Positions 878 to 58,043 of a stretch of 64,000 bases of DNA are shown here, one piece after another. Within the stretch, counting starts at the first letter, position 1, and every line of letters starts with the position of its first letter. Position numbers and translations under genes: made by a program. Origin of the DNA: Eledone cirrhosa (lineage: Eukaryota). The notes under the pieces were generated by a model. That model searched no databases, had not been told where the DNA came from, and was given only the letters and a program-made list of their open reading frames with translations. The stretch covers positions 264,058,001 to 264,122,000 of the forward strand of contig OZ024743.1 in the NCBI GenBank assembly GCA_964016885.1. Reading direction: 5' to 3'.

Positions 878-2195
878 ATGCATAAGTCTGTGTGGAATGA
901 AGTAACAACTATTGCAGAAATATTTCAGGCCAGTAAGCAAGTCAGAGACATTTGATACGAAAGAAAACCTACGAGTGCGCAAATTCTGCAGCTGACACAG
1001 AAAATAAATGGTACCACTGTTTTCTTTTCCTTTTTCTATGTGATTTTTTTCTTCTTCTTAACTTCGCTTAACTGTGGTTACCATTCTGTCTCTCCAACAG
1101 AGTTCAGGCAGTTTCTATTAGCTGTCATTTGATACGTCACTACAGCCTATTTAAAGCTAACATCCTTCTCTTCAAATATTCGGATTTCATACATTAGTAT
1201 AATATGGTTTATAGTGTTAGGAGTGTTAGAACGTTAATTTTTTTTTTTGTACATATAGTTTTATAAGGTTAGGAGTGTTAGTTAGAACATTCAGTTTTAT
1301 TTCAGTGCGTTATTTTACTAATGTGGACCACCTGACTCGAAATCAACTGGATTCCTTATTGGTAAACTTACAGCAATATCACCATACATCCCTATATATA
1401 GAAGATACAATAAGTACAACCAGTATGAGGGAGATATCTAAGATGACATTGCCTTTTGGAATTTTCGGAGTTGTACTCAATCTGAGATCATATATCGAAA
1501 ATCAAACATTTATGTCATTGAAAAATCATTATAGCCATTAATATGCAAACACACATAGAAACCCTCACCACACTCATAGCCAAGTTGTCATTTTCACTTT
1601 TCATATATTTTGTGGCATGTTAAATTTTTCTACGCATTACTGCAAACTGTTGCCTGACACAATTGCATCATATCTCCTTCCAAACTGTTATATAACGATA
1701 ATTAGTACGTTGACCATCTACTTGCTTAACTAATGCAGGAGTTATGTTTTATCTTTAATGGTGGCGTGGTCCTGGGGGAAAGAGAAAGCGGGAGGTAATC
1801 TTAGACAAAAATCCTACCTCAAATATTTGCAACAGTTTATGCTCTAATGAAAGAGATTCAAGGGCCATGTAGTAATAGTAGTGGTCACGTTAAACTAGGT
1901 GACGGATTAAGTCTACAAACTAAGTACAGTAACCATTCTTCTGACAACGTTCCACATCTTCTATACACAATCATACACACCCGTGTATATATATATAACG
2001 AAGGAGGTGTGGTAAGGAACCAGATGGACCATAACGTACCCGAGTATTCAATACTTAGGGTAGTATAGTGGGTAATAGGAAAATGCTTCACCCCGACGGC
2101 AGAGCTGAAGCCGTTTCGACGGCTATATCTGGACTAAATTAGAATTTTTAGCGTGTTAAATACATAGCCGAACTTTTTAAGGGGTAATTCCTTAT

Positions 2196-4226
2196 ATGGT
2201 AAGATTCCCAGTTCCACCGAGAAAACTTTACCTTCGGATGCGCATGCAAAAAATCGACCTGTTTGCGAAAAGACTGAGATGGAGAACATTTTTCTACGAT
2301 AGTTACCGCGACAACCAGGACTTTGACACCAAGGAGAGATTCGGATTCAATATGTACACATCTCCCCCACCGAACCCTATGCTCTCACCCTTCAAGAACG
2401 ACCTCTTCCACCTGGTCAACGGTATAAAATTCAAACCCAGACACAACCAATTCCTACAACAACTCCGTAGCAAAATAACGGAGTATGAAAGCACCAACGA
2501 CATCCTAGTGCATTCGGACAAAACTGGAAACCTCTATTTCGTCAACCCTGACAGATACCACACACTGATCAGGAGGAGCCTGAACTCCATCTACAAAAAG
2601 GCTAACCATTCAATAATCGATGACATAAATCTAGATGGACAACAAATTACCTCCAGCCTCGGGGTCGCCGACCGCACTGAACCCCTCGATCCACGGACTC
2701 CCTACTTCACCCTAAAGGACCAAAAATCCGACTTCGACCGCAAGTCATCCTTCAGGCTAATAAACCCGACGAAGTCGGACATAGGGAGAATATGTAAAAA
2801 GATCCTAGACCGCGTTATACCAAAAGTTAAGCAAAATGCGAGACTTAGCCTTTGGGTCTAGTTCGACATAGAGAGTTACTACGCCTCTATTACCTTACCG
2901 CTCCTTACGGCCGCTTTGGACTTTGCCAAAATACGCACACCAATAAACGACCAGGAAAGAAACATCCTTCTCCACGCCAGGAAGACAGTCCTCCTTTTCG
3001 ATAACTCCAAGTGGATAAAGATAACTCCCGACTCCCCCTTCGACGTAAGTATGGGCGCGACCGACTCGGCCGAGGTGACCGATTTTATAGGATTGTTCCT
3101 ACTATATAAACACACCGAAATGTTTCCTGCATTCGACGTTGAATTGTACCGAGACGATGGGCTCCTTACCCTCAAAGGGTACAACCCCAGCAGTACGGGC
3201 CGTGTCCGTAAGCAATTAATCAACTTCTTCTGGGACTGGGGATTTATAATCACCCTACAAACGTCCCTAACACAAGTCAATTTCCTAGACGTTACCCTCA
3301 ACCTCGAAAATGATCTGTACTACCCATACAGGAAACCAAACAACAACCTGCACTACATCCACCGCTGCTCTAACCATCCTAGAAACATCACCAAGAACCT
3401 GGTTAAAAATACCTACCTCCGCATATCTCGTTTTTCCGCTAATGAGCAGATATTCGATGAACATGCGCCTCATTACAATCAGGCCCTCTACCGAAGCGGC
3501 TTTCGGGAGGAAATCTCCTTTTATTCAGCTTCCCTTAGCGGAACCAGCAAGCGACGTCGCCGCTCACGCCACGTAACGTGGTTCAATCCTCCCCATAATG
3601 CCGAGGTGGCAACACCTATCGGGAAAATCTTATTTAGTCTCTTCGAAAAACACTTCCCACCGCAACACCGCTACCACAACATAATCAACAAAAACACTAT
3701 CAAACAGCGCCACACCCAACCTCTCACAAAACATCGCCGCCTCAAACAACAAGAAACTCAACTCATATGGAAGAAACAATGTAGACATTAGTGGAGAGCC
3801 GACCAGGAGGTGTAACTGCCCTGATAGATCTAGATGCCCCCTCAACAACAGATGCCGAGAACGTAACGTGATCTACCAATGCAACATGAGGACGGAAACC
3901 TCCAACAAAGCCTATATAGGATTAATCGCTTGTGACTTTAAGACCCCGCTCTACTAACACCGACATACGTTCCGAAACTCGGCCCGGCGACATGCCACTA
4001 CACTTTCGGGTCACATCTGGGACCTCCATGATATTAACATAACATACAATCTTAATTGGAGCTTACTGTCCAGGGCTAACTCCTACACGTCCGTGTAACT
4101 TATGCTCGGAGGAAACAATACAGATGTTGTTTACGAAGGACCAACTCCTAAACAAAAAAGACGAACTGGTGACTGCATGTAAATACCGATTGCATAGGAC
4201 TTACCTCGCCCTCAAACCCCCTCATG
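2196..4226 (+). pseudogene. PLE polyprotein: reverse transcriptase plus GIY-YIG endonuclease, disrupted
   Basis: Motifs KRLRWRTFF, SDKTGNLY, FTLKD, RLINPTKSDIG, FDVSMGA, YRDDG, NFLDVTL, WFNPP, then CNC..RCPL and VIYQC..KAYIG. Several stops and frameshifts. Confidence 0.92.
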
Positions 4227-4877
4227 ACCCGGGTGGGTAGACAATGGCTGCAGCATCCTCCTTTTCCCAGCTTGCCGAACAAGATAGGGGAAACCCCAGT
4301 TAACATAGGTGGATGTACTTCTTTTCTTTTCCTTTTACTTTTCTTCTTCCCTTTATCTCTTCCTATCACTTCCTTCCACCCCCTATCTCTTCCTTTTCCT
4401 TTTTCCTCTTACGCCTACCCCGAGGCAGTCCATCGGGATTTTGTAGTCTCAGTAACCCGACCCCAGTAAATTATATATATCATTTGCCGAAAACGCAATA
4501 CCAACTAAGTATAGCAGCTGCTTTAGACTCTAGAGATTTTTTTTATTACTTTTTACTTTCCAATTTTATTATTTTTATATATTTTTTAATTTATTTATTA
4601 TCTTCTAATCTCAATTTATTAACCTATTCTATAATGTCCCCCATCTATTTTTTAACAGAATCCTTTTTCGCCTGCTTCCTATCTAGCCTACACACTCCTT
4701 AGAATTTGCTGTATAGAATTAACTTTCAACGCTTGACCGGCTCCACCCACTCTCTCATTGTTCTACAGGCAAGTTCAGCTAACGCCACATCCCACCCACT
4801 CCCATGAAAGATTTAATTGTGTTTACAAGAAATGTTGACCAATCCTTTTGATAACTACAATCTGCCCATATAAGGAA

Positions 4878-4977
4878 TTAACCCTTGAAGAGTTCGGTTA
4901 TTTATTTACCACGCTAAAATTTCTAATTTAGTCCAGAAATAGCCGTCGAAACGGCTTGAACTCTGCCGTCGGGTTGA
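4878..4977 (+). ncRNA. Type I hammerhead ribozyme in PLE pLTR (U3 core variant)
   Basis: TTAACCC-TTGAAGA-long stem II (CGGTTATTT/AAATAGCCG)-GAAA-CGGC(ttgaactct)GCCG-TC^GGGTTGA. A more decayed antisense copy lies in the left arm at ~2087-2187. Confidence 0.75.
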
Positions 4978-4981
4978 AACA

Positions 4982-5035
<54 letters not shown>

Positions 5036-23419: not shown

Positions 23420-23450
<31 letters not shown>

Positions 23451-23544: not shown

Positions 23545-23852
23545 CACTTATATATATACATATATATACATATATATATACACTTATATATATATACATA
23601 TATATACATATATATACACATACACACACACACATAAACACATACATATATATACATGTACATATATATACACACATATATATATATATATATACATATA
23701 TACATAGATATATACATGCATATATACATACATACACATACATATACACTTATATATACATATAATTATTGGGGGGGGGGTATTAAATTTATTAGTGAGA
23801 AATAGTAAATATATAGTGTGAGTGGCATTTAGGTGTGTAAGTTTCATTTGGT

Positions 23853-24993
23853 AGAATTTCTAACCTTTCGTCTAACCAAGATGTATTTGATAAAAATGTG
23901 ACCTTTTATAACGAAGCTCTAGCTAGAAGTGGCCACAAAAATAGATTAGTATATATACCTTCTACCAATAACACTACAAACATACCACCTAATATTACCA
24001 ACAAACACCAAATGAAACATACACACCTAAATGCCACTCACACTATACCCCAAAACACCAACATAAAACCAAATTTCTCTAACTCTTCTAATATACAGTA
24101 TAGTAACTCTCAAAAAACTACTCATCCTACAACTCTAATAAATGTTAATAATAAAACTCCTAATAAACAAGCTAAAACACCTAAATCAATAAATCTAACT
24201 AAAAATATGTGTGGTGAGGTCATTAACAATAATTCTCTTAATAAACATCAGGATGTGTCCTATAAAAACAATAAACAAAATCGAAACCGTAATAGACGAG
24301 TTACTTGGTACAATGCTACATTTAATTTACAAATTAAGGATAATATACCTAAAAAATTATTTAATATCCTAAAGAAAAACTTCCCGCCAAACCACAAATA
24401 CCATCAAATCTTAAATAGATCAACGGTTAAATTCTCCTACTCAACAACCAAAAACATAAAACAAAATATAAGTGCCTATAATGCATATAAATGTAAAAGA
24501 ACCATGAGTATACCACCAGTACATCAAACTAACCATAATATCTCCTCAGATACAGGATTCACGAAAAGTTGTAACTGTAAAAACAAGGCAAACTGTTCAT
24601 TAAAAGGAAATTGACTTGTTAATAACAGTATATAAATGTAAAGTTAACACTAAGGACTCAATTTATTCATATATAGGAGCTACCTCTAACAAATTTAAGG
24701 TAAGATTTAATACCCACAAACATAGCTTTAAAAATGCCGCACTAGCTAATACAACATCTCTAGCTGAAATAATAAATAGTTATAGAAAGAGGAATATAGA
24801 ATATGACCTGACCTGGAGTGTGCTCAAAAGGGCCACCCCTTATCAAAATAGTAGAAATGAATGTAGATTATGTTCCCAAGAACTTTTTGAAATAATGAAA
24901 TCTAAGGATATCCTATTAAATAAGCGACAGGAATTAATAATATCGTGTAATCATAAACTGAGAAAAACCTTTAAATATTATAAACCTAATTAA
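23853..24993 (+). pseudogene. PLE RT thumb, Asn-rich linker and GIY-YIG endonuclease (frameshift near 24614)
   Basis: RISNLSSN..FYNEALARSG, RRVTWYN, NFPPNHKYHQILNRSTVKFSYS, SCNCKNKANCSLKGN, VYKC..SYIGAT..FKVRFNTHKHSF, CRLC..E..LLNKRQE..CNH. Confidence 0.92.
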
Positions 24994-25560
24994 TATACAC
25001 TTTAGAAATTAATTTATAAATTATTTTTAATTTAGTTAACCTATAATTAATATTCTACTACTGATAAACTACATAATTCTGCTTTAAAAATTATAAACCT
25101 AATTAATATACACTTTTGAAATTAATATATAAACTATTTTTAATTTAGTTAACCTATAATTAATATTCTACTACTGATGAACTACATAATTTTACTTTCC
25201 TTCTTACAAATATCATTTCCTAAAACTGATACCATTAAGTAAACATATATAATGCTTTAACTTCAGGTTATGACTCTATGTTCCTTGAAAACTATATATA
25301 TTTACTATTTCTCACTAATAAATTTAATCCCCCCCCCCAATAATTATATGTATATATAAGTGTATATGTATGTGTATGTATGTATATATGCATGTATATA
25401 TCTATGTATATATGTATGTATATATATATATATATATATATGTGTGTATATATATGTACATGTATATATATGAATGTGTTTATGTGTTTGTGTGTATGTG
25501 TATATATGTGTATATATATGTATATATATGTATATATATATAAGTGTATATATATGTATA

Positions 25561-28730: not shown

Positions 28731-29563
28731 GATTTCATCGACATCAGAGAGATGAAGGACACATTTAACAATAGTGGAATTTGAACTGAGAATGTAAAGA
28801 GCTCGAAGGGCTCATTTGCCCCACACCACGACGATTCTGCCACAACCTCGACAATTGCCTGATAATTATTATAAACCATCGAGACAGCCTCAACGATCGC
28901 TTGATCTATAAATTTTATCAGCTAAATTTCACTCTTTTTTTTTGTATATTAAAGGTTACCATATATCAAATATTTTCAGCCATTCAATGTTGTAGGTCAC
29001 CTGACAGAATGAACATGAAGAAAGGGATGATGAAGAGAAAGGGGAGTTTGATTGTTGTAGGCCTAAATATGATGAATGAACTGACAATTTTGATAAGAAT
29101 ATGACATGGAATGGAAATGCACAACAATATAATCATTTATTTTACAGATGCTTTTATATAAATCCTGCGGGAAAGGATTATTTCTCCTTATAAATTTGAT
29201 ATTACATATGAGTATTAATAATTTCTTCTCGAACCATATTTGTATTACGAGTTTATACCTTGTGAGAGAAAAAAAGAGGAAGATATCAAATTGCATTTCC
29301 CAAATACATCTATCACTAATTGTTTGCCACTTGACAGTTGTTTATATTATAAAAATATAAATAGAAAGTATTATGAAACTGTGTTTTAGTAATAAAGGGA
29401 AGAAGCACGACACATATTGTTGCAATGTACAATAATTTCAGTTCTTATTTCGTGGTTCTTTGCTTTATTGCTAAAACATACTTTAAAATATACCCACAAC
29501 TATATCTATATATATATATATATACTAAGAGTGAGAAATGAAATTTCGTTTCATTCTTTTCCA

Positions 29564-29622
<59 letters not shown>

Positions 29623-29629
<7 letters not shown>

Positions 29630-30597
29630 CAAATAACGAAACGAAATTAAATTTCGTTTCGTTTGTAACTCACTTTTGTATGACTGACGCTTAAACAATT
29701 AAGTTAAAGATGTACATCCATATATGTATACTGAAATACTAGTATGTATATGAATACACACACGTATACATATGTAGATGTACCAAGTTTTTTCACTGGT
29801 CACTTTACTGTGAGTGGCCAGCTATTCTGTATGTAAACACACAGACAAACCGGTTTTTAGAGTCATACTGGTTTTTGAGGAAACACCTTTCCTCTATTCT
29901 CCAGAAAGCCAGACAAGGAATATTGAACTAGTTTCGTTGTTGTTACAACTCATCAGCAATATTTACCTATCTTCCGGCCTCTCTAGAGAATCGTAAAAGC
30001 ACATATCGTTATATGCTTTTTCTATGAAAATTAGTAGTGGGCAGACTAATTTGCATAGAGTGTGAGTAAGTACCGGTTCAACGGAGACGATAAAAACAAA
30101 TAACGAAACGAAATTAAATTTCGTTTCGTTTGTAACTCACTTTTGTATGACTGACGCTTAAACAATTAAGTTAAAGATGTACATCCATATATGTATACTG
30201 AAATACTAGTATGTATATGAATACACACACGTATACATATGTAGATGTACCAAGTTTTTTCACTGGTCACTTTACTGTGAGTGGCCAGCTATTCTGTATG
30301 TAAACACACAGACAAACCGGTTTTTAGAGTCATACTGGTTTTTGAGGAAACACCTTTCCTCTATTCTCCAGAAAGCCAGACAAGGAATATTGAACTAGTT
30401 TCGTTGTTGTTACAACTCATCAGCAATATTTACCTATCTTCCGGCCTCTCTAGAGAATCGTAAAAGCACATATCGTTATATGCTTTTTCTATGAAAATTA
30501 GTAGTGGGCAGACTAATTTGCATAGAGTGTGAGTAAGTACCGGTTCAACGGAGACGATAAAAACAAATAACGAAACGAAATTAAATTTCGTTTCGTT
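29623..30597 (-). mobile_element. 467-bp HHR-containing tandem repeat (retrozyme-like), ~2.1 units, antisense arm
   Basis: Exact 467-bp period (29623, 30090, 30557). HHRs at 29919-29963 and 30386-30430. Confidence 0.9.
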
Positions 30598-30663
30598 GAA
30601 ATTTAATTTCGTTTCGTTATTTGTTTTTATCGTCTCCGTTGAACCGGTACTTACTCACACTCT

Positions 30664-30671
30664 ATGCAAAT
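30664..30671 (+). promoter_or_regulatory. Octamer ATGCAAAT, present once per unit in both arrays (e.g. also 39874-39881)
   Basis: Exact octamer in shared context TATGCAAATTAGkCTGC, ~110-125 nt upstream of the HHR cleavage site. Function is inferred only. Confidence 0.5.
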
Positions 30672-30756
30672 TAGTCTGCCCACTACTAATTTTCATAGAA
30701 AAAGCATATAACGATATGTGCTTTTACGATTCTCTAGAGAGGCCGGAAGATAGGTA

Positions 30757-30801
30757 AATATTGCTGATGAGTTGTAACAACAACGAAACTAGTTCAATAT
30801 T
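30757..30801 (+). ncRNA. Type I hammerhead ribozyme, representative of the 467-bp unit
   Basis: AATATTG-CTGATGA-GTTGT(aaca)ACAAC-GAAA-CTAG-TT^CAATATT. Canonical core, palindromic stem III ACTAGT, GUU triplet. Confidence 0.9.
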
Positions 30802-32568
30802 CCTTGTCTGGCTTTCTGGAGAATAGAGGAAAGGTGTTTCCTCAAAAACCAGTATGACTCTAAAAACCGGTTTGTCTGTGTGTTTACATACAGAATAGCT
30901 GGCCACTCACAGTAAAGTGACCAGTGAAAAAACTTGGTACATCTACATATGTATACGTGTGTGTATTCATATACATACTAGTATTTCAGTATACATATAT
31001 GGATGTACATCTTTAACTTAATTGTTTAAGCGTCAGTCATACAAAAGTGAGTTACAAACGAAACAAAATTTAATTTCGTTTCGTTATTTGTTTTTATCGT
31101 CTCCGTTGAACCGGTACTTACTCACACTCTATGCAAATTAGTCTGCCCACTACTAATTTTCATAGAAAAAGCATATAACGATATGTGCTTTTACGATTCT
31201 CTAGAGAGGCCGGAAGATAGGTAAATATTGCTGATGAGTTGTAACAACAACGAAACTAGTTCAATATTCCTTGTCTGGCTTTCTGGAGAATAGAGGAAAG
31301 GTGTTTCCTCAAAAACCAGTATGACTCTAAAAACCGGTTTGTCTGTGTGTTTACATACAGAATAGCTGGCCACTCACAGTAAAGTGACCAGTGAAAAAAC
31401 TTGGTACATCTACATATGTATACGTGTGTGTATTCATATACATACTAGTATTTCAGTATACATATATGGATGTACATCTTTAACTTAATTGTTTAAGCGT
31501 CAGTCATACAAAAGTGAGTTACAAACGAAACGAAATTTAATTTCGTTTCGTTATTTGTTTTTATCGTCTCCGTTGAACCGGTACTTACTCACACTCTATG
31601 CAAATTAGTCTGCCCACTACTAATTTTCATAGAAAAAGCATATAACGATATGTGCTTTTACGATTCTCTAGAGAGGCCGGAAGATAGGTAAATATTGCTG
31701 ATGAGTTGTAACAACAACGAAACTAGTTCAATATTCCTTGTCTGGCTTTCTGGAGAATAGAGGAAAGGTGTTTCCTCAAAAACCAGTATGACTCTAAAAA
31801 CCGGTTTGTCTGTGTGTTTACATACAGAATAGCTGGCCACTCACAGTAAAGTGACCAGTGAAAAAACTTGGTACATCTACATATGTATACGTGTGTGTAT
31901 TCATATACATACTAGTATTTCAGTATACATATATGGATGTACATCTTTAACTTAATTGTTTAAGCGTCAGTCATACAAAAGTGAGTTACAAACGAAACGA
32001 AATTTAATTTCGTTTCGTTATTTGTTTTTATCGTCTCCGTTGAACCGGTACTTACTCACACTCTATGCAAATTAGTCTGCCCACTACTAATTTTCATAGA
32101 AAAAGCATATAACGATATGTGCTTTTACGATTCTCTAGAGAGGCCGGAAGATAGGTAAATATTGCTGATGAGTTGTAACAACAACGAAACTAGTTCAATA
32201 TTCCTTGTCTGGCTTTCTGGAGAATAGAGGAAAGGTGTTTCCTCAAAAACCAGTATGACTCTAAAAACCGGTTTGTCTGTGTGTTTACATACAGAATAGC
32301 TGGCCACTCACAGTAAAGTGACCAGTGAAAAAACTTGGTACATCTACATATGTATACGTGTGTGTATTCATATACATACTAGTATTTCAGTATACATATA
32401 TGGATGTACATCTTTAACTTAATTATATATATATATATAAGTGGAAAAGAATGAAACGAAATTTCATTTCTCACTCTTAGTACGGCTGATACTTAAATGT
32501 AAGTATGTATGTATACATATATGTATACAGACGTACAGTAGTATGTATATATATATACATATATATAC

Positions 32569-32996
<428 letters not shown>

Positions 32997-34186: not shown

Positions 34187-35893
<1,707 letters not shown>

Positions 35894-35904: not shown

Positions 35905-37297
<1,393 letters not shown>

Positions 37298-37317: not shown

Positions 37318-37469
37318 ATGCTTTCCAGCGTAGTGACGTCCCTTTACGATCTGAGTTCAAATCTCGCCGAGGTTAACTTTGCCTTTCATCCTTACAGGGT
37401 CGATAAAATAAAGTACCAGTAATGCACTGGGTAATTGCTGGCCTTGTGCCAATAGTAGAAACAATTATT
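37318..37469 (+). mobile_element. 5'-truncated tRNA-derived SINE
   Basis: B-box, core and GTAGAAACAATTAT end are present. Confidence 0.88.
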
Positions 37470-39140
37470 AAATCGTTTAGTCTAATCTCTTACATTTTAC
37501 TGCTGTCAGGTCATCATTCACGTGTGTATGTATGGATGGATGTATGTATATGTATGTATGTAAGTATGTATGCATGCATGTATGTATGTATATGTATGTA
37601 CGTATAAATATATGTATATATCAGATTGCTTTCAGTAATATGGCTGCTTGAGATAAAACGAATTTCAAACACCCCTCCCAGCTAATATTAGGTAATTATC
37701 ACAAGATATTAGAACGCCTGATATTGTAAAGTACATTGTCTTAAACAAAAATTGCGAAACTAAAAGAGAAAAGTAAAATGTAAATGAAGACATGAAACAC
37801 TAAAAAATACTCTTTTATCTTTTGCTCTTACGTAAATAAAAGTAATTTTAAAATTCTTTTATTAGGTGGCGCATTTCAATAACTGAATGCGTCACTTTTA
37901 GGTTACAGCTTTCCTTGTTTTAAATGTTTTTTTTAAACTTTATATTTTGTTTTTAGCTGGCGAATTGGCAGAGTTGATAAACGATCGGATAGAAACTTTG
38001 GTTTGTGTTCCATTTATCTGGCCTATGAGTTGAAACGACTTTAAAGTCAAATTCTTCGAGGTCGATAAATAAAGTAGTATTCACGTACTGATGTTGATTT
38101 TCTTTTCACCTTCCTTCCTCTGACTCTCTCTCTCTCTCTCTCTTCTTATCCTCTCTCCTATTTTCCTATCCCATCTTTCCTTTCTCCCTATCTGATCTCT
38201 CCCTCTCTTCATCTCCCCACCCTCCTCACCTCTCCATGTCCCATCACCCACTCTCATCTCCTTCCCCATCTCTCCTTCTCGCCTCTCCCTCTACCTTACC
38301 CCATTCTTCTCTCCCTCTCCCATCTCTCTCTTTCTCTCTCTCATTTGGATACGCTGCGATGAGATAATTACTTCGACCATTACTCCAAAAATGTAAACAA
38401 AATTGTGCAATGCCCTAACAAATTCTTCTCAACTTGAATCTGATATAGTTTTGGCACCATCCAAAGACGAACCTATCTGGAGTGAAGAACTGCTTTGCCG
38501 GAAATTTATTTCGTCAATATCGCAGTAAATATACATATATGGAATTTCATTTATAATAGTTTGTTTTTATTTTGATGAGAGAGGATTTTTACTGTTTAGA
38601 CATAAAAACAACACACGTTATTTCACCTGAACTTTATTGTAAAGCGATAAGGTATGTTTACGTCGTCTTAATATATGAATTAATTATCTTAAATTTGTTT
38701 GCCGGAACGAAACCTCGGTATGAGTACGAATTTGTAGGTAAAATTATGTTATATTTTAAAATGTTTTTTTTTACTTGCAATGCTTTCTTTTATTATACTG
38801 TAAAGTTTTGCACCAAAATATCATTTTTGAAGAAATGAAAGTCAGTGATAAGAAAGTCTGGAGAGCTGGACAGCAGAAACGAAACTCCCCACAAGCGAGT
38901 GTGTCTACCCTTAGAAGTTAAGTGTTTAGTCTATATATATAGTATTGGAGCTATTTACGGTCTAAAATGACTGAAATAATTTTATTCTGGTCTATTATTC
39001 TCTCTCTCTATATATATATAATATATATAATATAATATATATAATATAATATATATAATATATACCTATATGAACCTACAGTAACTCCGCGTTATATATA
39101 TATATATATATATACACATATATATATACATATAAACACA

Positions 39141-39220: not shown

Positions 39221-39589
39221 ATAAAGAAGAAAAATAAAAGATGGTTAAAAGAGTTACATATATTTTATTATGATCATTTCCAATACAAAATCATCCTGGG
39301 ACAAAAATTGTGATCTCATCAGATTAAATAAGGTAACATGATATGAGGCATAATAGCACTTGTTTACAGGAAAGTGCTAAGTCTACATATGCACTTTCCT
39401 GTAAACAAGTGCTATTATGCCTCATATCATGTTACCTTATTTTATCTGATGAGAACACAATTTTTGTCCCAGGATGATTTTGTATTGGAAATGAGCATAA
39501 AATATATGGAACTCTTTTAACCATCTTTTAATTTCTTCTTTATCGTATATAATCCAGTTCTACCAACTGTTGAGTGCTACTTATCTGAT
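39221..39589. mobile_element. Palindromic PLE-type mini-insertion with an HHR in both arms
   Basis: 39221-39377 is inverted to 39391-39543. Minus-strand HHR at 39261-39330 reads TATTTAAT-CTGATGA..GAAA-TGATCA-TA^ATAAAATA. A plus copy at 39438-39504 is damaged. Confidence 0.8.
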
Positions 39590-39598: not shown

Positions 39599-39679
39599 GT
39601 TTACAAACGAACAAAGCGACGTTAGCGCCGCTAAACTGATACGTGCATATATGTATGTGTACCTGTATGCATATGTATA

Positions 39680-39714
<35 letters not shown>

Positions 39715-40155
39715 GTGCATGCTACTGTACGTCTGTATACATATATGTATGTACGTATACATGCATACTTACATTTAAGTAAGTGCCATACTAAGAGTGA
39801 GAAATGAAATTTCGTTTTCATTTTGTTTCAATTTATCGTTTTCGGTATGCCTAACCGATTTAACTCACTCAATATGCAAATTAGGCTGCTCAGCCGTTAA
39901 TTTTCATAAGGAAAGTATATACTTTCGAACGTTCAACTATCTGGCAGATGGGTAAACGGTGCTGATGATAGCTAACAAGCTTGAAACTAGTACATCGTTC
40001 CTGTGTCAGTGTTGAGCAAAAAGGTGACGTGGTTGCCTTAACACCGTATGGCATAAATTCAGGCTGTTCAGTTTGTTTACAAACGAACAAAGCGACGTTA
40101 GCGCCGCTAAACTGATACGTGCATATATGTATGTGTACCTGTATGCATATGTATA

Positions 40156-40188
<33 letters not shown>

Positions 40189-40629
40189 GTGCATGCTACT
40201 GTACGTCTGTATACATATATGTATGTACGTATACATGCATACTTACATTTAAGTAAGTGCCATACTAAGAGTGAGAAATGAAATTTCGTTTTCATTTTGT
40301 TTCAATTTATCGTTTTCGGTATGCCTAACCGATTTAACTCACTCAATATGCAAATTAGGCTGCTCAGCCGTTAATTTTCATAAGGAAAGTATATACTTTC
40401 GAACGTTCAACTATCTGGCAGATGGGTAAACGGTGCTGATGATAGCTAACAAGCTTGAAACTAGTACATCGTTCCTGTGTCAGTGTTGAGCAAAAAGGTG
40501 ACGTGGTTGCCTTAACACCGTATGGCATAAATTCAGGCTGTTCAGTTTGTTTACAAACGAACAAAGCGACGTTAGCGCCGCTAAACTGATACGTGCATAT
40601 ATGTATGTGTACCTGTATCCATATGTATA

Positions 40630-40673
<44 letters not shown>

Positions 40674-41111
40674 CATGCTACTGTACGTCTGTATACATAT
40701 ATGTATGTACGTATACATGCATACTTACATTTAAGTAAGTGCCATACTAAGAGTGAGAAATGAAATTTCGTTTTCATTTTGTTTCAATTTATCGTTTTCG
40801 GTATGCCTAACCGATTTAACTCACTCAATATGCAAATTAGGCTGCTCAGCCGTTAATTTTCATAAGGAAAGTATATACTTTCGAACGTTCAACTATCTGG
40901 CAGATGGGTAAACGGTGCTGATGATAGCTAACAAGCTTGAAACTAGTACATCGTTCCTGTGTCAGTGTTGAGCAAAAAGGTGACGTGGTTGCCTTAACAC
41001 CGTATGGCATAAATTCAGGCTGTTCAGTTTGTTTACAAACGAACAAAGCGACGTTAGCGCCGCTAAACTGATACGTGCATATATGTATGTGTACCTGTAT
41101 GCATATGTATA

Positions 41112-41144
<33 letters not shown>

Positions 41145-41585
41145 GTGCATGCTACTGTACGTCTGTATACATATATGTATGTACGTATACATGCATACTT
41201 ACATTTAAGTAAGTGCCATACTAAGAGTGAGAAATGAAATTTCGTTTTCATTTTGTTTCAATTTATCGTTTTCGGTATGCCTAACCGATTTAACTCACTC
41301 AATATGCAAATTAGGCTGCTCAGCCGTTAATTTTCATAAGGAAAGTATATACTTTCGAACGTTCAACTATCTGGCAGATGGGTAAACGGTGCTGATGATA
41401 GCTAACAAGCTTGAAACTAGTACATCGTTCCTGTGTCAGTGTTGAGCAAAAAGGTGACGTGGTTGCCTTAACACCGTATGGCATAAATTCAGGCTGTTCA
41501 GTTTGTTTACAAACGAACAAAGCGACGTTAGCGCCGCTAAACTGATACGTGCATATATGTATGTGTACCTGTATGCATATGTATA

Positions 41586-41618
<33 letters not shown>

Positions 41619-42059
41619 GTGCATGCTACTGTACGTCTGTATACATATATGTATGTACGTATACATGCATACTTACATTTAAGTAAGTGCCATACTAAGA
41701 GTGAGAAATGAAATTTCGTTTTCATTTTGTTTCAATTTATCGTTTTCGGTATGCCTAACCGATTTAACTCACTCAATATGCAAATTAGGCTGCTCAGCCG
41801 TTAATTTTCATAAGGAAAGTATATACTTTCGAACGTTCAACTATCTGGCAGATGGGTAAACGGTGCTGATGATAGCTAACAAGCTTGAAACTAGTACATC
41901 GTTCCTGTGTCAGTGTTGAGCAAAAAGGTGACGTGGTTGCCTTAACACCGTATGGCATAAATTCAGGCTGTTCAGTTTGTTTACAAACGAACAAAGCGAC
42001 GTTAGCGCCGCTAAACTGATACGTGCATATATGTATGTGTACCTGTATGCATATGTATA

Positions 42060-42094
<35 letters not shown>

Positions 42095-42215
42095 GTGCAT
42101 GCTACTGTACGTCTGTATACATATATGTATGTACGTATACATGCATACTTACATTTAAGTAAGTGCCATACTAAGAGTGAGAAATGAAATTTCGTTTTCA
42201 TTTTGTTTCAATTTA
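39599..42215 (+). mobile_element. ~474-bp HHR-containing tandem repeat (retrozyme-like), ~5.5 units
   Basis: HHRs start at 39955, 40429, 40911, 41385 and 41859 (spacing 474/482/474/474). Units differ mainly in internal (TA)n length. Confidence 0.9.
39955..39999 (+). ncRNA. Type I hammerhead ribozyme, representative of the 474-bp unit
   Basis: AACGGTG-CTGATGA-T-AGCT(aaca)AGCT-T-GAAA-CTAG-TA^CATCGTT, GUA triplet. Confidence 0.87.
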
Positions 42216-43102
42216 TATATATATATATATACATAAATCAACGCAGAAACACAGATCCACGCATTCACACACGAGCGCAAAAACATATACTTATGTATGT
42301 TTAAGTTTCATATTTTTTCATTAAATATCCCTCAAATATTCATATTAGTTCTTTATGTTTGGATGGGTACACGAGCGTTTCTAAATCCATATGTATGTAT
42401 TAACATTTTAAACCTCCATAGCTCCGTCCTTAGAAGAAGAATGATTGTTAAAATGGCATATTGATTGTTTGTTTGCAATAGATCGTGGAATTTCTATTAA
42501 AATCTTGCTGAGTTAAATTTATTAAAATGTTAAACCCTAAGTAATACCCTGTTTGCTGTATCCATATGTAAGATAGACTTATGTAATGCCCATTTGTGCT
42601 TAATATGTTTCTCAAGGCATTGCGCAAAAGGTTATAGTATAATACATCCCCCTAAGGTGCCGCATATTGTGTATTGCATAAAGAGTTTATCTAGCATTTG
42701 CATGTTTATCGTAAATTTGGTAGAACAGCAAGTGAAATATCACCCTTTGCAAGCCATCACACGCATTTGCATGTAATGAGTTGCATTTGCTTTTGCAGTT
42801 CCTTTGATTCAGTTCTTTGTGAATGTTTATGCTCCAGGATAAAATACTGGCTATGTATTTGAAGTTGTCAATAATATGGAATCTTCATTTCACCAGTATA
42901 ATGGTATACCTTTAAAGGTTTAGATTAAATGTTTAATACATCGGTTTTCTTTCTTGAATTACTCTGTGCTGGCAATATACTTACGACTAATACTGCAATT
43001 TACTGCACATACTGGACAGCAAATTATGCTATCTAGCTAAAATAATTGTTCATTTGTTAAATTAGAAGCATTAAAAAAATAATTAAAAAAATAATAATAA
43101 TA

Positions 43103-46100
43103 ATTTCTTTATTAGCCACACAGGTCTCACATTAAGGAAACATTAAAGACGATACAGGATGATACACTCTGGGTTTTTCTTTGTGTAAAATAAAATTTAT
43201 AAAAGAGAGTAAGAAATTAAACGTTTAAAACAAACATAACAACTTCACCAAAGTTGAGGATATTCTAGAGGTCAATCGTGTAAAAATCCCACAAAATCCC
43301 CGGTCACCCTGTCCGCTAGGGCAAAGTGTCCTCTCCCAGTCTTTCTACTCCAATCTACAGGCGTATGCTGGAGGCAGGCTCATACGGACCATGCTCACCA
43401 CTCTCACCCAGCGTTGATGTTGTTCACTCTCACCACAGATCAGATGTCGTTGTGCATGGCAGTGATCCACCCTCTGAAGACGGGCCCAAAGCAATCAGGA
43501 TCGCCGCCAGATAACGATGTTATATCCTATTGGAAGCTTTCGACTGATCTAAATTGATCAAGGCCGCACCTGAGCCAGGTTCGTTAGCTACCCTCTCCAT
43601 GATGTATCGCATCAAGTGAAGGTTGTGGTAGATGGATTTGTCTGGAATGGCGCATGAGTGCGTCTCTCCTACTGGACCATCGACGACAAGCGCCAACAAA
43701 TTTGTTAGCACGTTGACCAAAATCTTGAACTCTGCGTTTAGCAGATTAATGGGCCTGAAATTATCAATGTTGTCCCTCTCTTCGGGTCTTTTCTCAGCAG
43801 CGCTACCGCTCCTCGGCTCACAGAGCTGGGAATTCTCCCGTTCTGCTGCCAGTTGCAGTAGACGTCCACCAAGAGGTCACCTAACAAGTCTGGCATGTGT
43901 ACGTAAAGCTTGTAGAGCAGACCATCCGAACCAGGCGATTTACCCATCGTGCAGTCAGTCATTGCCTCCCGTATTTCAGCGGCTGTTATCGGCTTTTCGC
44001 ATCACTCCACCACAGTGGCCGAGAGCCGCGGCAGACCGCCAACGTAGGCTCTAAAGTTCATACTGCGATCGAACCCACTGCTGTCCCCGAACAGCTGAGC
44101 GAAGTGCCGCTGAAAAGCCGAATAACATGCGCCCGTCGTGGTCCTCCAAAAACTGGATCATGGCTTTGTTGCCACGACGCGTTTCCGCCATCGGGCCCAT
44201 CTAACGGCTTTCGTCCCCTCGTGTGCCAGAGAAGGTGCCCTAGCTCTGACAACGCAACCTTCGTGAAGGGCCAATCTTGCCGCAAGCACGTCGGTTGCGA
44301 TGACTTTACTAAGCGCCTCTCCTAGTTTTCTAACTAGTTCTTCTACTCTTTTACTCTATTGCTGACACCTTTGTAAACCTAATGGATTCTATTCTAATCG
44401 CCCTTATCAGGGCGAACCACCATTTGTTGTTGACGACTACCCCGTCAACGCCCTCTTAACTAGTTCGTTAATTCGGTCTCTATAGGCTTTGCGCGTTGTC
44501 AGCGAGGCGTTTAGCTTCCAGTAGCCGGGTGCCTGTCAAATGAAGCCTAAGTCAACCATACAGATCACGAATGCATGGTCCTTGTAGTCGACTATTTGAG
44601 TTGTGGATAACCTAAGCTAGAACTATCTACTTCCTTACAAAATTCTCTATGTAGATGATCCCATGCGGTTTGTCCATGTCCACATTGGCACATTCGGGAA
44701 ATCGAGTAGCATACCTTTCAGACAGTTGGAAACATCTGAGCAGGTTTGCGAGGTTTTACACCCTCCTCCCGCTAATCCCACACAATCCCAGCGTGCATCC
44801 AAGATCCCGTTCCAACCGCCCACTAACATTAAAGAACGGGACGTTCCTATGAAGGTCTCCAGTCGCCTGAAGAAATCAGGCCATCCTCCTCCTGTCGGAG
44901 CATAAAGAGCCACTAGCCTAAAAATATAGCCTTCATTGCTGGTCACGACCAACACCACCGACTTACCCTGTGGGTCCTGGAAGATGGTCAGTATCACAAG
45001 ATCCAGGCCTCTCCGAAACAACACAGTGACTCCGCCTCCCGATCCTGGCCGGCTTGGAGATGCGTACACATGCGTACACAATTGTTTATTGTTCAAGTTT
45101 AATGCTGTGTAGTGTTTCGGTTTGTTTATTTTGTGTTGCGTTTGCGTTTGTTGTGGGTTTGATTCTGTTTCGCTTGTTGGTGTTTTTTGTAATGTTGGTG
45201 ATGGTGGTGTTGGTGTTTGTGGCGATGGGGCTGGTGATGCTGATATGGGGGGGGGGTGCTGGTGGTGTAGCTGTCTTGACTTTCTTGTTTTTTGTTTGTT
45301 TCGCCCTCTATTCTTTGGAGGGCGAAGGAAGAGAGTTCTTTCTTTCTGGTTTCTTTTTTTACAGATACAGTTTTCCACCCTTCTCCACGTCACAATCCGC
45401 CTCTAGATGTGAGAGTACGAGAAGTGGAAGTTCATTCACAGGCATTGGTGTTAGTTATAGTGTGGTGTTTGGTTGTGACACTAGTGCTACTTCTGGCGTG
45501 GTGGGTGGTGGTGGTGGTGATAGTCTTGCAATCGTTGCTGCTACAGTTGCTGATGCCGTTGCTGCATCTGTTTTTGCTGGTTCAGCCAGTGGGGCAGACA
45601 GGAGTGGTGGCCTTAATTTTTTAGCAATCCCCTGAGAGCAGAAGGCCTTTAGATGGGTTCCATCACCACAAACAACAGACCTTAGCCTTCTACCTTCAAC
45701 GATTACGGAGAGGTGGCTGCCGTCTTCGAGGTCTATCACCTCTGGAAATTCCTGGTTGCTTTTCTGATCCGTCTGGATCAGGAGCGCCATTCCAGAATCG
45801 GACCAGTTCTCCTGTTTTATTTTTATAACTTGGATGACCTTTGTGTTGTCCTCGATGTCGGCGAGGACGGCAGCCATCAGCCAGGGAATTTCAATGACCG
45901 GTGGTTCCTGGTTCACTTTTACCCTCACGAGCCTTTGTCCGCAGTTACCTGGGACTAGTGTGAGCTCGTCGCTTTTTAGTGGAGCCATGAAGTGCGCTCT
46001 GGCTTCCTGTGGGGTTTGGAAAAACACATCGACGGTCCCATATCTTCGTCCACGTATGATGTGGGTTTTCTGAGCCCACACAAGTCCCATACCCTTTTGG

Positions 46101-46943: not shown

Positions 46944-49900
46944 CTTTCTTTATTAACCACAAGGGTTTACATAAAGTAGACATTAAGGACAGTACAGAAC
47001 AATACAGGACGGTACAAATGGGCATTTCTGCGTGTAAAACAAACAAAAAAGAGGATGTAACAAAAAATAACAGTGAAAAATTCACCAATAGGGGGGAGAC
47101 TTCCGAGGGACATTTGTGGAGAAAGCCCATTAAAAGGCCACAGTGACCCTGACCACCAGGGCAAATGCCCTCTCCCAGTTTTCCACCTTTAATTTACAGA
47201 CACATACTCAGAGTAGGCCCATTCACTCGGGCCATACTTGCTTCTCTCACCCATCTTTCAACAAAATGCTGGGAAGAGAGCACCTCCCCCTCTACCCTGA
47301 TTTTCCTTTTCAAATGAAATTTGTAAAAGTTAATCAGGGCATCACTGAAGAGGTAAGTGCTCGTCTTCAGCCCTTTCAGACGCGTCCACCATACTATCTC
47401 TTTCGCCATGGCCACCAGACAGATAAAAATTGCCTGCCTTTCCCGGCTAAAGGAAGAGGCGGGGGGGGGGGGCAATCCTCACGATGGACTCAGGTGTTCG
47501 ACATAAACCCACAAGTCAGCAATGCTCGGACACTGGACGAGTGCGTGCAGGACGGTTACGTCGCCCTGCGCGCATCTCGGACATTCCTGGCTGACGGCAC
47601 CTGCATCCCTGTAGAGTTTATCCCGAACTGGCAAAGCTCCTGGGTAGCACTGCCAGGCCAGGGATTTCTGGAAGTTATCTATAGGCCCCGGCCCGAAAGT
47701 TCTTCCAAAGAGATTGGCTAGTTGATTTCCGTCGACGCCTAGAGTTTCTCCAAGTATGTCGTCGCTCTTCCTCTCCACTAATCCTCTATAGAACGCCAAG
47801 GTGGAGTTTCCACCGATTACATTGCCTGATTGGTCGAGGGCTGTGAGCGCCTGAAGACATTCCAGTCTCCAAGCGCTCCCTCTCGGTCTTCGCTTGATCC
47901 AGGACTGCAGCTCCGTCAGGGAGACGAGCTGGGGAAAGACGCGTCTAGCAAACGGCGACCACACCTGATCACCGTCGAGGAAGATGTGGAGATGTCGTAG
48001 CCTGAGCGCGTGTCTGTACACCATCAGCCACGGCATGCCCAGCCCTCCACGTAGCGGGTGTTGACAGCAGATGGATCGCCTGACCATCGGAGCGCGTCCT
48101 TTCCACAAAAAGCGAAAGAGCAAACGCTCCATCGCAGTCAGGCGGGGCTTAGGACAAGGTACGACGGTCAGGCGGTAGTAGATGACGGACGCGATGTACG
48201 CGTTAGCCACCTCCGCTCGACCTTTCAGGGATAGTTTCTTCTCCGCACATTTCTGGGTGAGAGAAGCCATCCTGCTCGTCACCTCGTCCCAGTTTTTGTC
48301 CGTCTGGAGGTCCGGGCCGAATCAGACCCCTAGCAATTTAACCGGTCCGTCCGTCCAGCGCCCGACGACGCTGTTGGACGGCATGGACCTGCCTCTCCAG
48401 GTGCCGAGCTGCAGGCCCACTGACTTTTCCTGGTTGATCATTGCTCCTGTCACCGCTTCTTATTCTCCTAGTGTAGTGCCAATCGCCTCGATGTGTTTGG
48501 CGTTCGACACCACTACGGTTACATCGTCCGCATATGCTGATACGGATCTTCCGCATCCTAGTTCGCGCGGGATCCCCCTCAACGTCTCCAGTTTGTGCAG
48601 TAATGGCTCGAGAGGCAATACGTACAAGAGGGACGAGAGGGGACATCCTTGGCGAACCGAGCGCATGATGTTGAACGATTCCGAAAGGTCACCGTTCACT
48701 CTCACCACAGAGCAGATGTGGCTGTGCATGCCAGCGATCCAGCCTCTGAAGACGGGCCCAAAGCGAGCCGCCCACAGGACTGCCGCTATGCAACGATGGT
48801 CGACCCTATCGAAAGCTTGCGACTGATCTAAATTGATCAAGGACCCGCCCGTGCCAGGTTCCCTAGCTACCCTCTCTACGATGTATCGCATGAGGTGGAA
48901 GTTGTCGTGGATGGATCTGTCGGGAATGGCGCATGTCTGCGCCTCTCCCACCAGACCACCCCCGGCAAGCGCCAACCTCTTTGCTAGAACCTTGACCAAA
49001 ATCTTGAACTCTGTATTCAGCAGAGTTATTGGCCTGAAATTATCTATGTTATCCCCCTCATTCGGATCTTTTCTCAGCAGCGTCACAGCTCCTGGGCTCA
49101 CAGAGCTGGGAAATCTCCCGTTTTGTTGCCAGTTGCAGTAGACGTCCGCTAAGAGGCCTCCGAACAAGTCTGGCATATGTACGTAAAGTTCATAGGGCAG
49201 ACCATCCAAAACCAGGCGATTTACCCCTTGTGCAGCCAGTCTTTGCCTCTCGTATTTCCGCGGCTGTTATCGGCTTTTAGCAACACCCCGCTTGAGTGGC
49301 CGAGAGCCGCGGCAGTCCGTGGAGGTAGACACTAAAGTCCATCCCTCGATCCGGCCCACCGCTGGCCCCGAACAGCTGAGCGAATTGTCGTTGAAAAGCT
49401 TGACACATTTGACCGGGATCGAGTAGCATGCGCCCTTCGTGGTCCACCAAAGACCGGATCGTGGCTTTGTTTCCATGACGCGCTCCGCCACTCGGACCCA
49501 TTGAACGGCTTTCGTCACCTCGTGTCTGAGAGCACGCACCCTAGCTCTGACAACGCAGCCTTCGTGCTTTGAATTGAAGAATTGGTCAAGGGCCAATTTC
49601 GCCGCAAGTACGTCGGTCGCGATGCCTTTGCTAAGCGCCTCGTCTAGTTTTCTAACTATTTCTCCCTCTGCTCTATTTTTCTCTATTGCTAAAGCCTTAC
49701 TAAACCAAATGGATTCTATTCTAATCGCTCTTTTCAGAGTAAACCACCACTTGTTGTTGACGATGGCCCCCATCAACGCCCGCTTAACTAGTTCGCTAAT
49801 CCGGTCTCTGTAGGCATTAACGCTAGTAAGGACGCGTTTAGCTTCCAGTAGCCGTGTCCTCGTCTATGAAGCCTATCTAAGTCAAGCACACAGATCACGA

Positions 49901-51883
49901 ATTTTTGGTCCGTGTAGCTGACTATCTTGAATTGTGGACAGCCTATGCTAGACCTATCTATTTCCCTACAAAATACTCTATCTAGATATGATCTGGATGA
50001 CCCGATACGATTTGTCCAAGTCGACATTGGCACATTCGGGAAATCCAATCGTTACCTCTCACACAGTTCAAAACGCCTGAGCAGGTTGGTGAGGTTCTTG
50101 CACCCTCCTTCCCTATCCGCTAATCCCACACAGTCTCCGCGTGCATCTAAGTTCCAGTCGCCCACTAACACTAAAGAGCGGGACGTTCCAAGAAAGGTCT
50201 CCAGACGCCGGTAGAAATCAGGCCGCCCTGCTCCTGTCGGGGCATAGACGGCCACTAGCCTGAAAGCTTGCCCGTCTCCGCTGGTCACGTCCAGCACCAC
50301 CAAATTACATTCTGTGTCCAGGAATATGGCCCGTATGGCGAGATCCAAACCTCTCCGAAAAAGCACAGCAACTCCTCCCCGATCCCTGACGGCTGGGAGA
50401 TGCGGACACATCGTAGCCGCCGAAGATCGGTGTGAAGGCCCGTGCTTCGGAGATTCTGGTCTCGCTGATGGCCGCTACATGTATGTTTAATGACCTAAGG
50501 TCGTTGAGCATGTGGCCTTGCTTCCATGTCGACCCCAAGCCACGCGCATTTATCTGCCTATTCTGAGTGAGGTCATGTTGAAATGGAGTGGAAAAGATAG
50601 GAAAGAAGAATGGTTTCTCCATCCTTTTCACTGCTTGTGGCCTCCTCCAGAAGGATGTCCTTATAAATCCTCCTGGAGTGTGCTTGTCGGAAGTCTCCGA
50701 TATCTTTGGGGAATTTTTTTTTTAGCGTCGTGTACGTTTTCGTGTGATGCGAGTGATTTTTATGTGTGGAGGTGGTGTGATCTTTTGGGTTGTTGTGTAG
50801 TCTTTTTCTGTGATGCTGGTGTTGGATGTAGTGTAATAATTTGTTGTTGTTCAAATTTAATGCTGTGTAGTGTGTATCGTTTTGGTTGTTTTGTTTTGTT
50901 TGCGTTTGTTGTGAGTTTGTTTCTGTTTCTCTTTTTGGTGACTTTTGTGGTGTTGGTGATGGTGGTGTTGGGGTTAATGATGGTGATGGTGTTGGTGTTT
51001 GTGGTGATGGGGTTGGTGATGCTGGTGTGGATGGTGGCATAGCTGTCCTAACTTTTTTGTTTGATAGTTTATTTGTTTCCCTCTTTATTTTGCTTTTGGA
51101 GGGGGAAATAAGAAGATTTTTTTTGGGGGGGTTTCTTTTTCTTTTTTTCCCTTTTCCTGATACCGTTTCCCACTCCTCGTCGTAACAATCTGTCTCCAGT
51201 TGCGATAGGTCGGGGAGTGGAAAATCCCTGTACCCATCTTTCTTTACCATTTTTTTGGCTTCTTCTAATTGCTCCTGAGTTACCTGGAATGCTTCGCACT
51301 TTTTTGCTACTCTGGCAAAAGACAGGGTGGTTTTCTTATTCTCATTGTTGCTGTTGTTGTTATCGTTATTTTTGTTATTGTTAATTTTAGTTTAAGTAGT
51401 TCTGGTGGTGGCGTCAGTGGTGTTCTGTGTGGAAGAGTTCATTCTGGGTAAATTCATTTCGATATCACGAGATAATTTATTTTTTCCTTTTGTTTCTGTT
51501 GTCGCTGTGATGGGGGGTGCTTCAACACCTGCAGTCATTGGTAATGGCGGGAAATGAATGTCTGCCTGAGACAAATTTAAAATATGGCTACTGCTTATAT
51601 TTTTAGTGTTGGCAAACGTAATAATATTTACAATGATGGTGTCGGTGTGAGGTGTTAGTTTGTGAGGAAGGTGTGACACTGAGTCGTCCATGATTTTTTC
51701 AAAGAAAAATTTTTGTTTGAAAATTATAAAAGTTTAAATTGTGAGTGTCCTTTTCAGAAAACAATGTATGTGCATTTATATACAGTTAACAATAAACATT
51801 TTCCATAAATGGCTATTTTAAACAACTGAAAATAACCAACCTTTGCGGAGCTCACGATAATACGATTTACTACGTAGGTCGCC
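46944..51883 (-). mobile_element. Tx1/L1-clade LINE copy B (frameshifted near-complete ORF2, reduced ORF1)
   Basis: INARGL..ISETR, VAVYAPT, LVGDWN, YLDRVF, GYWKLNASLL, NFRPITLLN, VRQGCPLS, AYADDVT, GGLGMP, and C-terminal CPRC..LHALVQC. Confidence 0.93.
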
Positions 51884-51907
51884 AATAATAATAATAATAA
51901 TAATGAT

Positions 51908-52075
51908 GTTTCTACATTTGGCACAATGCCAGCAATTACCCCAGTGCATTACTGCTGCATTATTTTATCCATGGCAAAGTTAACCTCGGCGGGTTTTTGA
52001 ACTCAGAACGTAAAGGCCATAACTCATTGCTGCAAATCATGGTGTGTGGCGCTCTACTAGTACTGTCAAACCACC
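51908..52075 (-). mobile_element. tRNA-derived SINE with internal deletion and (ATT)n tail
   Basis: Family A/B boxes and 3' end are present. Confidence 0.85.
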
Positions 52076-52654
52076 ACCCAAAAGTAATTATATTAAACAT
52101 GCTATATACGTAACATGTAGTATAGTATTAGATTAATGGTATCTTTTTAGCCAAACAAGAGAAAAGACACATGTTAACATTGTCGTTTCTAGAATTGCCG
52201 TCTAACCAGTAGCGTGAATAAATAACAATAATGCTCCTTGTGTCCTTCCCTTTCCCAAATACAGTTGTGTGTGATTGAAAGAGGAGTGTGGGAGAGAGCG
52301 ACAGAGTATAATTTGGCTGTTATTTCTAGCAGGAAACATTCGTTGCATTTAATGCGGCATTTTGCCTATTTTCCCTATTCGTGGTTCTTTGTTTTCGTCT
52401 AATACGAAAGAATCTAAATTTAGTAAGTTGGTAATCGCTGCGAGTACTGATACCTATTTCACCGGCAATTAACCAGCTTCTATCTGTAAGTAATTATCAA
52501 TGATTTGCTTCTCACATTTGAGAGTTCATTAAAGAAATAAAGATCTTTATCGGATTGACTCAGATGTAATGAAAATTGAAAATAATGAATGACTTTTACA
52601 TCCGCTATCGACAATGGAAAATAAAAAAATAAATTCATTATTTATTATCTTAAA

Positions 52655-58032: not shown

Positions 58033-58043
58033 TTTATTATAAA

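Follow-up and report, generated by a model that had tools for sequence, protein, structure and literature searches.

The window, a 64,000-nt stretch of Eledone cirrhosa contig OZ024743.1, contains a tandem array of 474-bp units whose full copies carry a hammerhead motif (family 2), together with a related head-to-head array and a solo copy (family 1) and two copies assigned to Penelope-like elements (PLEs) (Table 1). Positions within a unit are given relative to its predicted ribozyme cut. TRF returned a period of 474, 5.5 copies and 98% matches for the family-2 array, whose units begin at 39599, 40075, 40549, 41031, 41505 and 41979. The internal TA counts, from the first unit to the last, are 13, 12, 16, 12, 12 and 13, and when these tracts are collapsed the sole difference along the whole array is one substitution, a G>C in unit 3. 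An earlier sequence-only reading had described about 5.5 head-to-tail hammerhead units of 474 bp, nearly identical apart from a varying internal (TA)n and very recent in origin; the 5.52 units, their single substitution with TA counts of 12-16 and their near-complete homogeneity bear this out. Some details needed adjustment: the start at 39599 stands, but the last base is 42216 and not 42215; and the array does start mid-unit, at cut+83, and does run into (TA)n, but this terminal tract is not the internal one. The latter identification was ruled out because the last internal tract ends 121 nt earlier, at 42093.

The family-2 unit has a GC content of about 0.36 and is repeated in a plain head-to-tail layout without an LTR-type arrangement. 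It contains only two stop-to-stop frames (137-139 aa), both on the minus strand and running through the TA tract, and the ORF list of the array contained no frame for a reverse transcriptase (RT) with GIY-YIG, indicating that this is not an autonomous PLE. The predicted fold of the unit has a z of -9.35, and as a circle it reaches -157 kcal/mol in the sense strand vs -119 kcal/mol in the antisense strand; the sense strand folds more stably in both families. The array is very probably a young, non-coding 474-bp repeat with one type I hammerhead per full unit, that is, an animal non-LTR retrozyme.

Table 1. Features of the 64,000-nt window, in order of position.
Feature	Position	Strand	Remarks
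PLE copy 1, broken	2080..4985	+	RWR, DKT, CxCX5C; inverted 5' copy of its own 3' end; (TA)n after
SINE copies	11566-11774, 17537-17747, 18901-19336, 19496-19738, 37320-37470
PLE copy 2, 5'-truncated	23769..25340	+	CxCX5C linker, GIY-YIG-like stretch, short inverted 5' copy; TA-rich repeats around
Family-2-like fragment (2b)	29524..29568	+	ends at site 1 into (TA)n
Family-1 head-to-head array (467-bp unit)	29623..32424	.	minus arm 2.09 units, plus arm 3.91 units
Family-2-like fragment (2b)	32437..32560	-	stops at site 1 (family-2 position 318 by alignment), (TA)n beyond
Solo family-1 copy	34338..34748	+	94.7% to family-1 array; short inverted piece, then sense part
Left neighbour, older head-to-head palindromic element	39221..39541	.	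arms 92.7% alike; hammerhead-like core
Left-neighbour one-sided extension	to 39598	.	57 nt; abuts array 5' end
Retrozyme array (family 2)	39599..42216	+	5.52 head-to-tail units of 474-482 bp; cut+83 to cut+318
Internal (TA)13, unit 1	39688..39713	+	tip of long predicted hairpin
Hammerhead 1, type I	39955..39999	+	predicted cut after 39992, GUA triplet
Internal TA tracts, units 2-3	40164-40187 (12); 40638-40669 (16)	+
Hammerhead 2	40429..40473	+	predicted cut after 40466
Hammerhead 3	40911..40955	+	predicted cut after 40948
Internal TA tracts, units 4-6	41120-41143 (12); 41594-41617 (12); 42068-42093 (13)	+
Hammerhead 4	41385..41429	+	predicted cut after 41422
Hammerhead 5	41859..41903	+	predicted cut after 41896
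3'-terminal domain (site 1), likely reverse-transcription start	42175..42216	+	GAGUGAG, hairpin AAAUGAAA/UUUCAUUU, U-rich linker ending UUUAU
Terminal (TA)9, likely target site	42214..42231	.	first three bases (TAT) common to element end
SINE copies	51893-52079, 52641-52854, 54536-54643, 58033-58239, 59480-59681

One family-2 unit recruited 4768 contigs of sequencing run X1, which is perhaps from another species, indicating a multi-copy family. Six contigs (depth 5-19) were found in run X7 and none in X4, and no raw reads were recovered from X23, of which about 1/100 was sampled. The run search listed 20 runs from 15 studies that match part of the stretch, and words of the unit (39770-40110) occur under 16 organism labels with shares of 0.33-0.85; no RNA run is among those listed. 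X1, X7 and X4 are three of these 20 runs, and X23 is a raw-read run belonging to the same study as another of them. Relatives, diet or cross-contamination are possible sources of this spread over labels, which was not used as evidence of horizontal transfer; runs beyond X1 gave 0, 0 and 6 records. Exact-pattern scans found no match in metagenome contigs, viral contigs or prokaryote genomes.

Five hammerhead cores of the form CTGATGA-TAGCT AACA AGCTT-GAAA-CTAG-TA^ were located in the array (39962, 40436, 40918, 41392 and 41866). The hammerhead that had been assigned to each unit is therefore present in the five full units, giving five cores and not six. Each consists of a CUGAUGA core, a U·U-based stem II with an AACA loop, GAAA and a palindromic ACUAGU helix III, and in all five stem I is 7 bp long and open at both ends, which makes them type I. 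The pattern CTGANGAN{10,20}GAAACTAGT matched 12 times in the window (five in the family-2 array and seven in the sister family) against a maximum of 0 in 100 shuffles, the 12 matches being repeat copies of two unit types and not independent events. No Rfam match was obtained in the window at the gathering score. At the E-value level, the sister-family cores matched Hammerhead_HH9 with 37.7-38.6 bits, below the cut-off of 52, and no family-2 core was among the 150 of 323 matches listed. Relaxed Rfam matches to miRNAs were rejected, as they track TA-rich hairpins and all lie far under the gathering score.

Helix III forms a single base pair in a monomer and six pairs between adjacent units. In constrained folds of two cores the double hammerhead was better by 4.2 kcal/mol in family 2 and by 10.3 kcal/mol in the sister family, and in family 2 the two active folds were 11 and 15 kcal/mol less stable than the predicted minimum-energy fold. 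A short palindromic helix III with dimeric cleavage has been described as the usual condition in animal type I hammerheads (PMC4209133).

In all five family-2 cores, U stands at both 10.1 and 11.1 at the base of stem II, where the canonical G10.1-C11.1 pair is absent; the sister family keeps a G-C. The family-2 hammerhead joins two weak points, this U·U and a one-pair helix III, and this combination speaks against activity. The sequence-only reading had supposed that the U·U may reduce activity. It looks like a family trait: among the variants listed for the 4768 X1 contigs, a tally that includes only contigs at least 88% alike, none reached 5% at 39960-40015, and in axolotl HHR_Amex2, which has the same U·U, 22% of the monomer is cleaved in one hour and a larger share of the dimer (PMC7229834). 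On these two grounds the U·U as decay of this copy was rejected. A related subfamily in X1, with a hammerhead C at position 7, an altered loop 2 and the U at 10.1 kept, was observed in 27 contigs (loose ends at 39947, among those listed).

The 467-bp unit of family 1, located 10 kb upstream, is identical to family 2 in 307 of 434 aligned columns (70.7% end to end), with an alignment score of 326 vs a shuffle maximum of 145. The array had been presented as a second hammerhead family of about 474 bp; the two are sisters and not independent. In the single pairwise alignment of these two sequences, with the TA-rich hairpin excluded (29/148 and 54/156 pairs) and unaligned pairs left unscored, 10 of the 99 pairs scored had changed on both sides from family 1 to family 2 against a null of 3.8 ± 1.8 (P ~0.001), and 23 were broken against 37.2 ± 3.9 (P ~0.0005); the reciprocal test gave 10 vs 4.0 two-sided changes and 28 vs 39.9 broken pairs. 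Stems I and II both carry compensatory changes, and the loops GGUAAA and UAACAA, which may make loop 1-loop 2 tertiary contacts, were kept in both families while the adjoining stems changed. We interpret these patterns as selection acting on the retrozyme RNA.

The ends of the copies were compared at base level. The family-2 array stops at cut+318, directly after the conserved hairpin of the terminal domain (site 1), and (TA)9 follows; in full units the GAGUGAG of this domain pairs with a downstream CUCACUC. The same stop, between TTTAT and CG, was found in the family-2 array, in the minus arm of the family-1 array and in the solo family-1 copy, and family-1 position 303 aligns to family-2 position 318. 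Site 1 is likely the start of reverse transcription, and the terminal (TA)9 likely the target site. Five of the seven TA-abutting ends of this superfamily in the window fall on the site-1 homologous base, and the other two (cut+229 and about cut+234) lie on the inverted arms of two separate family-1 insertions. With the two 2b ends treated as one, the probability that three further ends coincide by chance is ~3e-6 if any position is allowed (±3 nt) and rises to ~2e-4 if only TAT/ATA sites are; the seven ends represent a single window and three or four events. The sequence-only reading had expected array ends that are not random, and those of related copies in the window lie away from the cut site and do recur at the homologous base.

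Both family-1 insertions show an inverted 5' arm and a tail of about 70 nt on one end only, an arrangement that is not seen in the family-2 array. The minus arm of the family-1 array ends at site 1 (cut+303) and its plus arm at cut+229; over 2801 nt the array departs from the reference unit only once. The sense part of the solo copy continues past the cut site as far as cut+303, where (TA)n follows, and the copy's inverted piece ends near cut+234, with a 15-nt match that 1 of 7969 control windows equalled. Together, the arms of the family-1 array amount to exactly six 467-nt units (975 + 1 + 1826 = 2802 nt), and their junction lies inside the site-1 hairpin; the six-unit total may be chance, or a clue to the joining of two cDNAs.

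At its 5' end the family-2 array starts at cut+83, at a junction without an inverted arm or a TA tract. No target duplication was found there, the flank scoring no better than shuffles with a longest shared word of 7 nt, and on this comparison both an inverted family arm and a target duplication were rejected for this end. The array abuts the extension of an older palindromic element, whose TA tail, in our reconstruction, was possibly the target of the array.

Inverted 5' copies and one-sided tails are features of PLEs (PMC8557442; PMC3846280), for which microsatellite targets are also described (PMC8557442), and the purified protein of an anole PLE introduces nicks into both strands of AT-rich DNA and initiates at two internal positions, which delimit a tail (PMC11167929). 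The fixed internal start, the (TA)n target, the inverted 5' arm and the one-sided tail are Penelope-like insertion signatures, and we consider PLE-primed insertion at a fixed site to be likely. The sequence-only reading did not include this signature.

Two PLE copies are present in the window, an assignment based on motifs and on an Atlas lead (HTH_animal 26-28%, RVT_1 42% of members). Pfam gave no family for five of six window frames, the sole match being an unrelated LINE RT, and at a looser cut-off none of three frames had a family. Hydra-clade PLEs are characterized by RWK, DKT and CxCX5C motifs, canonical hammerheads and (TA)n insertion, and Naiad and Neptune PLEs likewise prefer microsatellites (PMC8557442). 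The first copy could serve as a lead to the source family of the mobilising enzyme; within the 64-kb window, no homology was found between the retrozyme unit and the PLE ends. Directly after the endonuclease frame of the second copy there is a 113-bp tandem duplication (24969-25198), each copy of which contains CTGATRA and, at a distance, GAAATTAAT, without amounting to a clean hammerhead. Head-to-head palindromes with arms 81-93% alike lie beside TA repeats at 21764-21953, 22458-22592, 32669-32956 and 39221-39543. Each of these four has a hammerhead-like core, the one at 32816 (-) passing a relaxed hammerhead scan, and they are probably 5'-truncated PLE terminal repeats.

Other repeats were also observed. 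Inverted pairs with 92-100% identity span TA tracts at 22607-23421 / 25678-26492, 35978-36609 / 36618-37249, 35314-35345 / 35816-35847 and 29525-29565 / 32440-32480, one of which also duplicates several neighbouring microsatellites; such pairs could arise if both strands of a single TA tract were nicked. Two related LINE-like copies, 78% alike, occupy the minus strand (43422-45076 / 48694-50415), with an RVT_1 match at 48463-49266. A SINE of ~190 bp, which we take to resemble an octopus SINE, has about a dozen copies, two of them in tandem at 18918-19296.

The length of the array constrains the template. Copying from cut+318 on a cut linear monomer would give at most 318 nt, so that the 2618 nt of the array call for something else: a circular template, a multimer left uncut, recurrent template jumps or expansion at a later stage. 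Our main reading is a single PLE insertion event at a fixed internal site with rolling-circle copying of a circular RNA, to which, as a whole, we assign a probability of roughly 0.5; the circular RNA is in our view the likeliest template, at even odds. Each of the five full units has A at cut-139 and G at cut+24, and in the summed depth of X1, perhaps another species or population, these alleles reach only ~0.8% and ~0.06%, respectively. If X1 is the same species, sharing such rare alleles points to one founding unit; if it is not, their rarity in X1 may mean no more than that this genome has them fixed. The TA lengths do not bear on the choice, since microsatellites slip at a rate far above that of base substitution. 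The earlier claim that the tracts slipped during reverse transcription is therefore not supported, as slippage after insertion gives the same pattern. Circles are the main documented product of animal retrozymes, and multi-unit cDNA made from circles is a published model (PMC7229834).

It is possible, with a likelihood clearly below that of the circle, that the same fixed-site PLE priming acted on a linear multimer that had not been cut, a transcript of a young and homogeneous donor array, with a ribozyme that is slow or incidental. This route, absent from the sequence-only reading, would fit all the end data equally well, and the weak ribozyme architecture (the U·U and the one-pair helix III) speaks for it, as do several precedents: the anole PLE, the subject of the only in vitro PLE study, does not need hammerhead cleavage and uses unprocessed RNA as its main template (PMC11167929), axolotl tissues hold multimeric as well as circular RNA (PMC7229834), and eight of nine Xenopus retrozyme dimers were uncleaved in vitro (bioRxiv 10.64898/2026.07.22.740005). 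Against this, a donor of at least six units must already have shared the two X1-rare alleles, which moves the origin of homogeneity one step back, and the compensatory changes in stems I and II, with both loops conserved, are as expected under selection for cleavage.

Local expansion is an unlikely origin: a PLE-type partial tandem of 1.5 units, later expanded by unequal crossover or slippage, predicts the same ends and the same shared alleles, and the first and last units do share n = 13. Expansion of this kind was proposed by Li et al. for retrozymes from pLTRs (bioRxiv 10.64898/2026.07.22.740005). However, even 1.5 units require a template that continues across the cut site, and the opposite arms of the sister array, at 2.09 and 3.91 units with their single difference, make later expansion hard, as they would need two separate expansions straight after insertion. 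Near-identical repeats and dinucleotide tracts are error-prone in assemblies, and unit number and TA lengths were read from assembly sequence alone, but assembly or read errors on a real, shorter repeat are a very improbable explanation of the unit number or of the TA-length differences, given that unit 3 differs by both a substitution and its tract length, that the array is sharply bounded on both sides and has its 3' end in common with related copies, and that the family is abundant in X1, an independent or source run.

Under the main reading, insertion of a circular template by a PLE, RNA transcribed from the array would be cleaved at GUA, chiefly in the double-hammerhead form, which is favoured because ACUAGU leaves one base pair in a monomer. 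The monomers would be ligated into circles, as has been demonstrated for retrozymes from coral, mussel and axolotl. An RT/GIY-YIG protein of a PLE, perhaps one of the Hydra clade, would bind the hairpin domain and prime at UUUAU on a TA nick, circle the template 5.5 times, halt at cut+83 and join the other end without a recognisable target duplication; the TA tracts would slip during or after insertion. A more specific and more tentative proposal is that the site-1 structured domain, a hairpin within a junction closed by GUGAG/CUCAC that was kept in both families, is the start signal of a Hydra-clade Penelope RT, and that this enzyme, by rolling-circle copying, brings the circular RNA into TA microsatellites from one or both nicked strands. 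If true, this would identify the enzyme that mobilises an animal retrozyme, the site at which it primes and the form of RNA that it copies.

Family 2 resembles the animal non-LTR retrozymes in being a non-coding tandem with a type I hammerhead per unit and a GC content below 50%, and in its highly self-paired predicted circle and short palindromic helix III (PMC7229834). The basal U·U of its stem II also occurs in axolotl HHR_Amex2 (PMC7229834). The unit of 474 nt is slightly above the 150-450 quoted in that study, and within the range of 51-972 given by Li et al. (bioRxiv 10.64898/2026.07.22.740005). It differs from the animal non-LTR retrozymes in its variable internal (TA)n and in having no target duplication.

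The retrozymes of Li, Clavereau & Pollet 2026 are likewise tandem hammerhead units that co-occur with PLEs (bioRxiv 10.64898/2026.07.22.740005). That work relies on co-occurrence and on homology to pLTRs, for the most part in vertebrates, and its main text presents no insertion-junction analysis, whereas the evidence for family 2 comes from junctions, no pLTR homology having been found within the window. The (TA)n or AT-rich target and an internal start adjacent to a stem-loop are shared with Hydra-clade PLEs (PMC8557442) and the anole PAc (PMC11167929). Two starts bounding a one-sided tail and a tandem arrangement are known from EN+ PLEs, whose head-to-head inverted 5' arm is matched by sister family 1 (PMC8557442; PMC11167929). 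In contrast to the EN+ PLEs, family 2 has no ORF, and the tail seen in family 1 is about 70 nt vs 30-40 (PMC8557442; PMC11167929). The family-2 end also shares TAT with its target, whereas PAc starts without homology to the cut DNA (PMC11167929).

A literature search, with most subscription papers and two supplements outside its reach, listed no description of a retrozyme from a cephalopod and none of the junctions at which retrozymes insert. For the re-entry of animal retrozymes into the genome, PLEs have so far only been suggested as helpers and circles as the template, and according to a 2020 review metazoan retrozymes have no conserved motif pointing to a mobiliser (PMC7761336). The class of animal retrozymes is already described, and the base-level ends are the new point: unlike metazoan retrozymes as reviewed, family 2 has a readable fixed internal 3' end and (TA)n target. 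The copies described here give base-level junctions that point to PLE-type one-site priming and to a candidate PLE clade, and they bear on the question of whether concatemers in a genome can arise by reverse transcription of circular RNA.
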